Of a stretch of DNA of 64,000 bases, positions 33,901 to 56,072 are shown piece after piece. The stretch's first letter is position 1; each line of letters opens with the position of its first letter. Under the pieces are notes generated by a model that was not told the origin of the DNA, searched no databases, and saw nothing but the letters and a program-made list of their open reading frames with translations. The stretch is from Isurus oxyrinchus (lineage: Eukaryota). A program made the translations under genes and the position numbers. The stretch spans positions 51,150,001 through 51,214,000 of the forward strand of contig JANJGN010000008.1 in assembly GCA_026770705.1 (NCBI GenBank), in the 5' to 3' direction.

Positions 33901-35569
33901 CCAATTCAGTTGTCTTTGTCAGCTGTATTGGTTGTTCAGTTTGCTTTGACCAAATTACTTATTGGTCTCAAGGATTTTGCTGACTCAAGACAACTCTTTG
34001 AAATCTTCTAATTCAGAATGGGGGGTATTACTAGCATTTGGCACAACACCTCCAAGGCAGATCTTGCTTGTTCAAAATATGTCTAACAGAAATGGTTTTG
34101 AGTGTAAGCCTTCCTCTATTATCCCTTTTGCTTTAGTTCATGGGTCAGTCCTGAGTCTATTGAAGTTATCTACCTCATGTGGTTTTCTGTATTTCCCTTT
34201 ACACCAGCTCTATGGTTGACTGTAGATTTGCTTTGGAAGGACAAGCACAACTTTCCTCAGGCAGAGTGGACAACATTACAGTTCCAACAGCCAAATAAGC
34301 CATTTTTTTCTGTCTTGGATTCTTCACTGATGTTCCAAGTACTATACAGGACTGATATTTTTCAGTTTGAAAAAAAAAAAGTGTTGTTGGTACTCTTCAG
34401 GAAAGGGGGTGCAGGAATGCTCTGCTGCCTTGGATATCCTGTTCAATATACTGAACTAGTTTTGTATTTCACAAATTTCTGCGCATCTTCAGATAAAACT
34501 GCTGGGGCTCCCTTCCATGAAAAACACTTTCTGGAACAGGATGAAGAAATGTTTGAATATTTTCAGCAAAACAAAAACAAGATATTGATATTTATTTAAA
34601 AACATACACCAAAAATAGAAAACCATCCAAGAAGTGGTCCCAAAAGGTGATTAGCTCTAAAGTTGGAAAAAATTCATTGAGGAAAAATGTATTTACTTTA
34701 GGGTCAAAGCGATCACAATAGAGATCTGGGCCTAAGTAATCCACACAGAGCATCAGTAGAGCAGTGGGACTAAAACTAACCTTTTTTTTTCACGTTTTTC
34801 CCTCAGAACTAAGTATGAGAAATCATATTGTCCAAAACTAGAAGACCGTTTTAAACATTGTTACTTTAAAGGGATGGTTCATCTAAGATCAACTAGAAAA
34901 TAAAGAAACAGTATGTAGATGGCCAAAAAGATAAAAGGTCATGCTAATAACATTCTGTAGTTCTCAAACTGATGAGTCACTACTGACCCATTCTTCATCC
35001 TTTTCAGCATCCAAAATGATAACCTCAAATGGTTAACAAAGTTAGACAACCCTAAATGGTCTCAAGGTTCAACATTTTCATAAAAAGAGAAGAACATTGA
35101 TTAGTCAGCATGGATTTCAAAAGGGAAAATCTTGCTTGACCAATCTTAGCAAATTTTTGAGGTGCTAACAGAGAGCGTCGACAATAGGAATGTAGTCAAT
35201 GAAATTTATGTGGTCTTTCAAAAGGCCTGATGAGGTTCCCCATAATAGACTAATGAATAAGGTCAGAGAATATGGAGCAGGAGTCAAATGGCAGAACGGA
35301 TTGCTATCTGGTTTCAAGACAGAAATCAGAGTGAAAGAAAAGGGTAATTACTCAGAGTTGCAGAAGGACCACTTGGGAACACTGTGCTTGGGACCACTGC
35401 CATTCACAATTTACATTAATGATTCGGGCTTTGGAATCAAAAACACAATTTCTAAATTTGCATATGACATCGAATGTGGGTTTGAAGGATGGTATGCGTG
35501 GGGTTTGGGGGGTTGGTGAGGAAGAGAGATGGTCAGTACAAAAGAGGACTACAACAAATTAAGAGAGGA

Positions 35570-35796
35570 TAAAACAAAGAAAACTGCGGATGCTGGAAAT
35601 CCAAAACAAAAACAGAATTACCTGGAAAAACTCAGCAGGTCTGGCAGCATCGGCGGAGAAGAAAAGAGTTGACGTTTCGAGTCTTCATGACCCTTCGACA
35701 GAACTAGTTCTGTCGAAGGGTCATGAAGACTCGAAACGTCAACTCTTTTCTTCTCCGCCGATGCTGCCAGACCTGCTGAGTTTTTCCAGGTAATTC
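35570..35796. mobile_element. Young Penelope-LTR-like insertion containing a perfect 182-bp palindrome; 15-bp TSD
   Basis: 35615-35705 is the exact reverse complement of 35706-35796. TSD caaattaagagagga at 35555-35569 and 35796-35810. Confidence 0.9.
35706..35744 (+). ncRNA. Minimal type I hammerhead-ribozyme-like motif (mirror copy on the minus strand at 35667-35705)
   Basis: AGTT-CTGTCGA-A-GGGTC-atgaa-GACTC-GAAA-C-GTC-AACT: helix I AGTT/AACT, helix II GGGTC/GACTC, GAAA core, palindromic ACGT at helix III and a GUC cleavage triplet. The core differs from CUGANGA at A6 (U). Confidence 0.55.
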
Positions 35797-37695
35797 AAAT
35801 TAAGAGAGGACATTGATAAACTTGCAGAATGGGAAAATAATTGGCAAATGAAGCTCAACACAGACAAATGTAAGGTAGTACATTTTGTTTGGAAGAATTG
35901 GGAAGTAACAATACTTGAGGTACAAGCTAGGTGGGGTAGAAAGGGTCTTGGAGTATGAGTACACCAATCACTAAAATGTGGTGACTTAGCGAGACCATAA
36001 AAAAAGCAAACCAAGTACTAATGTTTATTTCTAGAGCGAGAGAATTGAAAATTAGCAAAGTTATGCTAAACCTGTATTGAACCTTGGTTAGACCACATTT
36101 AGTGTGCAGTTCCGATCGCCATATTATAAAAAGGATATAGAGGCATTGGAAAGGATGCAGAGATTTACAACTATGATACCAGAATTGCGAGGGTATACAA
36201 AAACAAAGGATAACAGGCTGGGTCTCTTTTCTATTGAAAGAATAAAGCTAAGGGATAACCAAATAGAGGTATTTAAAATTATGAAATGTTTTGATAGAGA
36301 TGATAAAGAGAAAATGTTTCCTCTTATGGGGAAGAGCATAACCAGAGGCCATCAATAGACAGATAGCCATCAAAACATCCAAAAGGAAAATCAGAAGAAA
36401 TTTCTTTACCCAAAGCGTGTTGAAAATGTGGAACTCACTATCATAGGGTGTAGTTGAAGTGCATTGTATAGATGCATTTAAGGGGAAATTGGACAATCAA
36501 ATGAGGGAGAAAGGAATAAAGGGTTACGATGGCAGATTTAGATGCTGAAAGATGGGAGGAAACTTGTGTAGAGCATAAACACTGGCTTAAATCAGTTGAA
36601 TTGAAAGGCCTGTTTCTGTGCTATTTATCCTAAGTAACCTTAGGTATGTAAAAACATATGGTCCACAATCAAAAATACTTAAGCAATGTACAGGATATCA
36701 GCCACTAAAACCTACAATACTCAGTTGATTATTCTTTAGCATGTTGTATGTTAGACATCAAAGTTTCATCTTATTTAAGAAAGCTGTTGGGATCATGGCT
36801 CATATCCTTTATAATATATCAAGCAGTAACAGGATCTTTACAATAGAAAGTCAACAAAAGTCATCACTTTAGTGACTCTTCTTAGGACTTATTCCACCGA
36901 GTTTAAGTGATAGCTTAGGTTGACTTTCAACTGTAAGGATTCTCAGTTGCTCCTAATGGATTGTACAGCAAATGAGTTCAAGTTCTAAACAGGGCTAAAT
37001 TAATCTCTACTAATTTAGCATTTGACTCTTAAAAAAGGGAAGTTTTATTCCAGAATACCATAAGGATCCAGTCCCTCACTCAGATTGCATCTTTTATAGG
37101 TATAACATAGCAAATTATACCTGAAATAGTCAGAACTGCATTTCTTCAAATCTCTGACAAATTTGCAATTATAATGCTGGCAAATACTCTAGAGTTTTGG
37201 ACTGAAGAAATTATTCCCTTCATGACCCAGCACCCTGGTGATTCTTTGAAAATCTCTAAATGCAGCACTGTTGATTCCATAAAGGCCAACTTCTCATATC
37301 AATTACAGCTAACATCTCTTGAACTTCTAATACTTCCCCCACAAGCTGGGTTCACTGTTGTAGAACAATGGTAGAACCTGTCACAGTTCCTTGCAGTTAA
37401 CCTCCACAGATGATTTAGCTCTTGAACACAAGAATATAGGCAAAGGATGAGAATAGGCTATTCAGTCTCTTGAGGTTCACCTCTCAATTCCATTAACTCC
37501 AATCACGGCATTCAATAGCATCTTGAATAATCAAAAGGTTTTTGCTTTTACTACATTGGTTGGTAGATTGTTGCAAATACTCACTAAGTAGAGAAAATGT
37601 TCCTTATGAGTTTTAAATTTACACCTGTCTTTCTTTTTTGGTGCACTAAAAAGTGCTAACCTTGGTTTATTGTATTCATACCACTTCAATACTTG

Positions 37696-41379: not shown

Positions 41380-42475
41380 CAAAGCAGACTCATGACCAAG
41401 GTCAGAACATGTGGAATCAAGAGATGAATAGCAGAATGGATAGCAAGCTTGCTACAATACAGAAAACAGTAGGAGCTTGCAGTAGTTTCTCAGATGGTAA
41501 AAAGGAGCAAATCGATGCTTGTACCACTATTGTTCACCATTTACGTAAACAACATGGACTCAGGAATCAGGTGGATAATTTCAAAATTTGCAGATCAACC
41601 CAAATTTTTGGGGGAGGGGGTATAGTTAATACAGAAGCAGACTGTGACAAAATACAGGAAAACATTAATAAACTGCAGAATGGTCATGTAATTGGCAAAC
41701 GAAATTCAATATAGATATGTGTAAGGTGTATGTTTTGGATTTTGGTGGGAGGAGTAAAGGAAACCGCATATCCTTTCAAAAATAAGAAACTAAATTAGGT
41801 AGAGGAACAGAAGCAAGAATCACGAAAGCAGAGATGCAAGTTAATAAAGTCATGAAAAAAAATCACTGGGGTTCATTCTAGAGGGATAGAATTGAAAAGC
41901 AGAGAGGGGATGTTAAATTCCTACAGAATCTTGAATAGACCGCACTTGAAGCACTGTGAACAATTCTGGTCTCCAAAAGGATATAGAGGCACTGGACAGG
42001 AAGAATAAAAAGATTTACCAGAATGATAAGTATAACCTCTCAGTTGTGTTATCAGGAAAGATTCAACAAGGGGTCTGGTTCAATCTTTCTCCAGCAAAGA
42101 TTGAATCAGGACTTGATAGGGATCTTTAAGATTATGGAAGGGTTCAATTCATGGAGAAGCTGTTTTCATTTGCAGGGAAGACCAGAAAAAGGATCTATAA
42201 ATATAAGATAGTCATTACTAAATCCAATAGGGAATTCAAGAAAAATGTTTTTACACAGAGTGGTTAGAATATGGAACTCCCTGCAACAAGGGGCAGTTGA
42301 GGCGACTAGCATTAATGTGAGTAAGGGGAGGCTAATAAACACTTGAGGGAGAAAGGAATGGAGATATATGTTGATCGGGCTAGGTTAAAAAGGGTGGGAA
42401 GAGGCTTGTGTAGAATATAAACACCGGCATAAACCTGTTGTGCCAAATAGTCTGTTTCTGTGCTGTAAGTACAAC
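41380..42475 (+). mobile_element. Old CR1 LINE 3' fragment
   Basis: SKFADQPKFLG-like RT motif, DCDKIQENINKL, LNSYRILNRPHLKHC.QFWSP, and CR1 tail gccaaatagtctgtttctgtgctgtaa. Confidence 0.8.
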
Positions 42476-51574: not shown

Positions 51575-52510
<936 letters not shown>

Positions 52511-55607: not shown

Positions 55608-56072
55608 AATAATGAAATAAAAACAGAAAGTGCTGGGAATGCTCAGGCATATTCGATTCTCAGTCCCTTAGAACTAGGGGGGTCACTGTTTAAAAATAAG
55701 GGGTCGCTCACTTAAGACAGTGATGAGTAGAATTTTTTCTCCCAGAGGGTTGTGAGTCTTTGGGAAAGGCTGGTGGAAGCAGAGTCTTTGAATATTTATA
55801 AGGCAGAGCTACATAGATTGTTGATTAACAAGGGGGTGAAACGATATGGGGGGTAGGCAGGAATGTGGTGTTGACGTTACATTCAGATCAGCCATGATCT
55901 TATTGAATGGCGGAGCAGGCTGAGCGGCGGTGTGGCCTACTCCTAATTGTTATGTTCATATTGGACTCCAAGCGTTAACCCTGTTTCTCTCTCCCCAGAT
56001 GCTGCCAGCTCAGGTGAGTGTTTCCAGCAGTTTTATTTCAAATTTCTAGCCGCCACAGCATTTTGCTCTTAT
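55608..56072. mobile_element. Penelope-LTR-like palindromic repeat split by a CR1 3' fragment (55654-55956, +)
   Basis: Left arm aaataaaaacagaaagtgctgggaatgctcag; right arm gttaaccctgtttctctctccccagatgctgccag..gagtgtttccagca. Inner CR1 tail cagatcagccatgatcttattgaatggcggagcaggct..ggcctactcct. Possible TSD catatt (55648-55653, 55957-55962). Confidence 0.75.

Follow-up and report, generated by a model that had tools for sequence, protein, structure and literature searches.

Several described systems provide a framework for interpreting inverted copies of Penelope-like elements (PLEs). Terminal repeats (pLTRs) lying head to head have been published as a layout of these retrotransposons (PMC3846280; PMC8557442), inverted repeats are reported for Penelope of D. 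virilis (PMC2377424), and paired hammerheads on opposite strands have already been noted in Schistosoma (PMC4209133). For an Anolis PLE that is predicted to act as a dimer, both DNA strands are reported to be nicked and extended; copying begins at two sites, one at each boundary of the tail, and insertion goes ahead on uncut RNA with no cleavage by the hammerhead (PMC11167929). As to the origin of PLE inverted repeats, self-priming has been proposed in one case (PMC3846280) and extension of both strands seen in vitro in another (PMC11167929). In the literature searched, a keyword search for head-to-head pLTR layouts of Penelope found only PMC3846280, a search for twin priming with inverted Penelope returned only unrelated work, and no report was found of hammerhead Penelope elements in the elephant shark.

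The locus examined here lies in a 64,000-nucleotide stretch of Isurus oxyrinchus DNA (the window). Two arms, at 35615-35705 and 35706-35796, are exact reverse complements of 91 + 91 nt with zero spacer, and pairing ends beyond them, exactly as the perfect 182-bp palindrome had been described in a first-pass annotation of this DNA. The 15-bp target-site duplication proposed at the same time also holds: the direct repeat CAAATTAAGAGAGGA is present at 35555-35569 and 35796-35810 (plus strand) in copies that are 100% identical, with base 35796 common to the right arm and the second copy, which leaves 226 nt of inserted DNA (35570-35795). The stretch without a partner, 35570-35614, had been called a leader of about 45 nt. 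Its length is indeed 45 nt, but it is not a separate leader. Because the long arm matches the parental pLTR plus tail at 97% over 135 nt, this stretch is the PLE tail, which forms the 3' end of the long arm on the minus strand (element positions +91 to +135). The paired part of the long arm (35615-35705) has its sense on the minus strand and covers element positions 0 to +90, and the short arm (35706-35796, plus strand) covers the same positions and shares its last 1 nt with the duplication. The palindromic unit very probably consists of two stubs, joined head to head, of the terminal repeat in which an abundant, ORF-bearing Penelope-like retrotransposon carries its hammerhead. The unit has no ORF of its own and is likely inert. 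A read-through RNA of the whole unit is predicted to form a 91-bp hairpin (-182.9 kcal/mol), which supports an expectation stated earlier. Elsewhere in the window are an intronless Pur-alpha family ORF (51575-52447, minus strand; PF04845, E 4.8e-107), of which the palindrome lies about 15.8 kb downstream, and an old related pLTR copy (55963-56027, plus strand) that is 78% identical and has lost the hammerhead core.

The unit interrupts an old, decayed host LINE on the plus strand (approximate limits 35100-36480), recognised in translations as a CR1-like reverse transcriptase and C-terminal region with stops, frameshifts and a weak RVT_1 match (E 0.019). The host frame reads ...TKEDYNKLRE before the unit and KLREDIDKLAEW... 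after it, and a single host reading is restored when the unit and one repeat copy are taken out. Thus, the claim of an insertion into a CR1 whose reading resumes stands as regards the frame, and the name CR1 is a presumptive one, given on the basis of motifs. Related LINE copies have the target word once (at window position 41662 and in public-run contigs), which identifies the 15-nt repeat as a target-site duplication.

An autonomous partner with a reverse transcriptase plus GIY-YIG domain was looked for and found. At one locus (L061), units of 3,353 and 3,340 bp lie in tandem; an unbroken 918-aa ORF is present in one of them, and the motif lies around the ORFs at 1713, 5066 and 8406, giving a tandem pLTR layout. 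The protein matches RVT_1 (E 6.9e-8) and, slightly below the Pfam cut-off, GIY-YIG (E 8.9e-4; 20 bits versus 22.6). It carries DKG (PADKGG), YIDD and a CX4CXXC linker (CPRKRCNTC), and its GIY-YIG region has two cysteines inside (VYCIRCSQCGLLYIG) and then EHL and CHF, which make up a CCHH finger. The DKG motif, the CCHH finger, a CX2-5CXXC linker and the clade definitions for endonuclease-bearing (EN+) PLEs have been set out previously (PMC8557442), and by those definitions the parent is classed from its sequence as an EN+ PLE of Neptune or Nematis type. There are 813 homologues of the ORF, many with PF01541. The closest named one is an uncharacterised protein of Chiloscyllium punctatum (69% identity over 65% of the query), and no match was found among solved structures. 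The ORF starts about 170 nt after the hammerhead motif, and a shared 3' UTR lies upstream of many arms. The arm is therefore the pLTR of an element with reverse transcriptase plus GIY-YIG, in keeping with the Penelope-like origin first suggested. The accompanying idea of a non-autonomous unit that spreads as such is not borne out, since an element with an ORF has this very arm as its terminal repeat.

Two further features of parental copies can be mentioned. At L061:5040-5061, an AG follows a pyrimidine-rich stretch at the 5' side of helix I and may be a 3' splice site; in D. virilis Penelope, an intron end has been placed at this side of helix I (PMC4209133). At L063:2321-3516, a pLTR stub (-7 to +115) is joined to the first 800 nt of the ORF in a unit starting at -3, which is followed by an inverted stub, and the arrangement suggests a switch of template on reaching the 5' end of the RNA.

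Minimal type I hammerhead-like motifs start at the axis on both strands, as had been reported. The plus-strand motif (35706-35744) has a predicted cut after 35740, which had been correctly placed, and its mirror on the minus strand (35667-35705) has a predicted cut after 35671. The plus-strand motif consists of stem I (AGUU/AACU), the core CUGUCGA (35710-35716), an extra A, stem II (GGGUC/GACUC), GAAA and a palindromic ACGU. Stems I and II, which match those of sister subfamilies with a canonical core, are present together with the extra base after A9, the G10.1-C11.1 pair, GAAA and the palindromic helix III region, but the core CUGANGA lacks its A6. A 33-nt piece of the motif, with U6, has 68,093 exact genome matches (control 0), versus 137 matches with A6 in the same context. 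Of the two readings that had been offered for the A6-to-U change, a family-wide variant is thus borne out. Sister subfamilies with CUGAUGA or CUGAAGA cores and the same stem II have 1,892 matches, including the 137 with A6, and show greater divergence, with medians of 0.91 and 0.85 for pairwise identity versus 0.96 for U6 (from 14 copies per sister subfamily and 60 U6 arms found with different seeds). Because these sisters keep A6, share stem II and are more diverged, the motif is a true homologue of the pLTR hammerhead, as proposed, and U6 is probably a later state of the core. The cores CUGUUGA, CUGUGGA and CUGCUGA are also mirrored in both arms of pairs, so that several subfamilies have U or C at position 6 and differ from one another at position 7. 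Stems I and II are almost invariant across copies; one diverged copy has a compensated stem I pair, and the CUGAAGA subfamily has a stem I mismatch.

Computational evidence for the ribozyme fold was also sought. An Rfam scan of the unit gave no hammerhead family at E up to 10, and microRNA matches from Rfam were dismissed because they fall below gathering scores and reflect the hairpin alone. When single arms are folded, only stem II is stable, and no more so than in shuffles (z +1.2 to +1.4), with the hammerhead fold at -6.0 versus -7.4 kcal/mol. A position 6 change, A6C, slows cleavage in Mg2+ (PMC3088659; PMC7151607), and the hammerhead inherited from the parent is likely to be slow or inactive with its U6 core. 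No cleavage rate for A6U was found in the literature searched, where supplements may list more core variants.

The window unit has many relatives. The identical zero-spacer centre occurs 308 times and the reversed control pattern 0 times, so the zero-spacer palindrome is not a product of chance. Close head-to-head pairs number 11,237 (9,912 + 1,072 + 253) by patterns that also take in related subfamilies. A DNA search with the unit gave 40 near-full-length copies with 97-100% identity (40 of 1,010 candidates scored), hits selected by their likeness to the query. The description of the unit as very young can be kept in a relative sense only, because many sampled copies are likewise perfect. At least three subfamily types are represented among zero-spacer copies, in proportions about as in all arms; the centres of close pairs are highly varied, and arms come in a continuous range of lengths, the longest being kilobases in size and including ORF sequence. 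The window unit is the minimal member of this continuum, which reaches several kilobases, and not a family of its own. As a separate case, the zero-spacer palindrome is found at least five times within an 18-nt tandem satellite (L151, G000:C3:11408000-11417000), where it has apparently been co-amplified.

Clear rules emerge when individual insertions are delimited. The first 100 motif matches on contig C1 were taken as a sample, and 98 of them were assigned to 72 insertions. Of these, 41 are inverted, 29 have a single orientation (one of them truncated by the limit of the sequence taken) and 2 are complex, in line with the inverted pLTR layout noted at first. The 98 arm 3' ends fall at a short site (44 at +95 to +110) or a long site (44 at +125 to +156), with 10 elsewhere. 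Inverted insertions combine a long with a short arm in 40/41 cases, two long arms in 1/41 and two short arms in 0/41 (P 1.6e-11 for this excess if ends are independent). Duplications of 11-16 bp, most often 14 bp (18 cases), flank 39/41 of them, which supports a true duplication of about 14-15 bp. A second sample was drawn from 48 of the first 50 among the 308 zero-spacer places (two copies from the initial search were left out), giving 45 loci, of which 4 complex ones were dropped and one is shared with the contig C1 sample. All 41 zero-spacer copies analysed join a long to a short arm; their duplications measure 9-17 bp, and their short arms end anywhere from +39 to +117. Because they derive from several subfamilies and their short arms end at such different positions, zero-spacer copies look as if they were built anew at each insertion. 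Among single-orientation copies, five stop at the short site within a duplication of their own (11-14 bp), as three do at the long site (10-14 bp), so that either site can serve alone as an insertion end. Arm starts lie within 6 nt of the axis in 41/97 arms, although starts beyond +6 are invisible with the seed used.

The two arms of a pair appear to share one source. An A/G marker in loop 2 is the same in both arms of 10,984/11,237 pairs (97.7%) and differs in 253, compared to 2,141 discordant pairs expected for independent templates. A neighbouring site used as a mutation control (one control site only) gives 135 discordant pairs, or about 150 when scaled, which leaves an excess of about 100, or about 5% of the independent expectation, that may reflect two templates or site-specific mutation rates. 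Over 5,062 sites in 72 pairs, 30 differences are mirrored and 131 are unmirrored (alignment noise included), which argues that the arms were not homogenised afterwards. Across 38 pairs, the positions of the two 5' ends are correlated (rho 0.67), with rho 0.74 among the 17 longer ones, and a long arm is joined to an axis-length arm in only 1/38 pairs. Of 37 pairs, 14 have a short arm that reaches further 5', 4 have a long arm that does so, and 19 are tied (p 0.03); a looser threshold gives 14 versus 6 (p 0.12). The same 37 junctions show overlaps of 1-9 nt in 15 cases, approximate values taken from BLAST ends, blunt joints in 3 and extra bases in 19. A recurrent 2-nt deletion was tried as a marker of reverse transcription errors and set aside: it is found in one arm of 215 pairs and in both arms of 20, and it is probably later slippage, since it affects short and long arms alike (16 and 13 of 30, plus 1 long + long) and its carriers are more diverged (2.27 versus 1.66 mismatches, p 0.017). 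Two arm junctions (G000:C1:587211 and G000:C1:1504840) hold 50 and 42 extra bases, and at 587211, at least, these are element-derived repeats, as in templated repair patches.

A single event probably produced the palindrome, with reverse transcription of one element RNA primed from both DNA strands after nicking. The GIY-YIG nuclease would nick the two target strands about 14 bp apart. Of the resulting 3' ends, one would start copying at the tail (about +135) and its partner at the short site (about +100, and +90 in this unit). Each would proceed along the same uncut RNA to the 5' end of that RNA, which probably lies near the axis, and the two cDNA ends would be joined by end-joining repair and then filled in. 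Cutting by the hammerhead is likely not needed for insertion, and both arms span the predicted cut site, which indicates that their templates were uncut there. These steps are reconstructed from finished insertions, with in vitro support by analogy from PAc, an element of the Poseidon clade and not of the parental one (PMC11167929). Priming by both strands on one RNA would explain why long arms pair with short ones, why single copies occur with either end, why markers are shared and starts correlated, why the short arm leads and why junctions hold untemplated bases. Long pairs that often differ by hundreds of bases at their 5' ends count against a single RNA, and marker sharing fits both one RNA and two RNAs from one source locus. 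Priming on two separate RNAs, nearly always of the same source locus, fits the long + short rule and the duplications and explains both the excess discordant pairs and the long pairs with unequal 5' ends, yet independent RNAs should truncate independently, and the correlation among longer pairs and the near absence of long arms joined to axis-length arms make such an origin rather improbable. An artefactual fold-back of the assembly has almost no chance of being correct. It is left some room by contigs from four public runs, none of which spans the palindrome locus (35470-35535 and the junction are uncovered). No empty orthologous site was found in these contigs, a result of no weight given the gaps, and RNA runs contain only small portions of the window. 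A 15-bp duplication, a restored host frame and conformity to the long + short rule are not what an artefact would produce, and the same contigs show many head-to-head joints as well as loose ends at 35602-35605, which is the short end.

The main rival to both-strand priming on one RNA is a published scheme in which antisense RNA folds back at its 3' end and primes itself, after which the hairpin is inserted in one piece (PMC3846280). This scheme is unlikely here, although under it a single template would yield arms lying head to head, variants mirrored between them and 5' ends that correlate. It also predicts the lead of the short arm (14 versus 4), can use the 15/37 junction overlaps, and suits a small inverted repeat, GAACT-CA-AGTTC, at the parental axis of one subfamily. 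It does not explain the sharp short end near +100 or the short-ended single copies with their own duplication, and the 4-6/37 pairs in which the long arm reaches further 5', the 22/37 junctions without overlap and the 308 loop-less centres speak against it. A different fold-back, in which the tailed first cDNA snaps back and is copied into the short arm, shares with the preceding scheme the single template, the mirrored variants and some junction overlap. It always needs the tailed arm to reach further 5', which is true in only 4/18 unequal pairs, and a snap-back from a short cDNA cannot make the tail, while short + short pairs are found in 0/41 cases. As a general route, it is largely refuted by the direction of the 5' bias, and its likelihood is very low. 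Even less can be said for a non-autonomous palindromic element or retrozyme spreading as a unit, which is highly improbable. The 308 identical centres and the 40 near-identical full-length hits, picked by query likeness, suit such spread, but the several subfamily types and scattered short ends of zero-spacer copies, the varied centres and the continuum of arm lengths to kilobases with ORF do not, and the satellite L151 is the only complex tandem case.

Overall, the palindrome is a real but ordinary product of a known class, and the family itself is a new member. The locus is one of thousands and probably inert, so that the interest lies in the genome-wide insertion rules and the fixed U6. A broader proposal, which we put forward tentatively and consider somewhat doubtful, has two parts. 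The mirror insertions would be the trace of a dimeric protein that starts copying one uncut RNA from both strands, at two fixed sites. The family that is youngest and most abundant would have done this with its hammerhead core fixed as A6U, so that either a vertebrate PLE burst could do without efficient self-cleavage or U6 functions as a natural variant. If true, priming of both strands by a dimer would settle the origin of PLE inverted repeats. The genome offers more than 11,000 short pairs and an intact ORF for testing both models of that origin, and the fixed U6 of the least diverged subfamily is relevant to the question of whether cutting by PLE hammerheads is required. If transcribed, the thousands of near-perfect palindromes of 100 bp could also be a source of double-stranded RNA.

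The closest parallels in architecture are Pen2a_Av/Pen2 of Adineta vaga (PMC3846280), the scheme in PMC8557442 and D. virilis Penelope (PMC2377424), with which the shark insertions share a head-to-head inverted 5'-truncated copy, a junction palindrome, a tail confined to one arm and a single duplication around the unit. The window unit differs from these insertions in having no ORF body between its arms and a tail of about 35-45 nt, and the duplication is about 14 bp here versus 8-10 bp in A. vaga (PMC3846280), in a genome with a very high number of close pairs (11,237 counted). The Poseidon element PAc of Anolis carolinensis resembles the shark element in its hammerhead near the pLTR-ORF junction, its two discrete 3' ends bounding the tail, and a template copied across an uncut hammerhead, the shark case being known from sequence alone (PMC11167929). 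The shark ORF has a CX4CXXC linker that is absent in Poseidon, and it starts well after the motif rather than in stem II (PMC11167929).

Comparison can also be made at the level of the ribozyme. Like the minimal type I hammerheads of metazoan PLEs, the motif has a 4-bp helix I, an extra base between 9 and 10.1, a G10.1-C11.1 pair, a palindromic helix III region and dual motifs on opposite strands; in contrast to those hammerheads, its A6 is replaced by U family-wide, its helix II has 5 bp, and it lacks an Rfam match (PMC4209133). A natural change at core position 6 is also known from the phage Bcep176 A6C hammerhead, which is reported to be slow in Mg2+ and active in Mn2+ (PMC3088659; PMC7151607), whereas here the change is to U in a minimal animal motif identified in genomic DNA. 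Finally, animal non-LTR retrozymes (bioRxiv 10.64898/2026.07.22.740005) are likewise ORF-less, related to pLTRs and equipped with type I hammerheads. Membership among them was considered and rejected, since retrozymes form head-to-tail tandems with a ribozyme in each unit, whereas the shark insertion is a head-to-head pair with a tail and a duplication.
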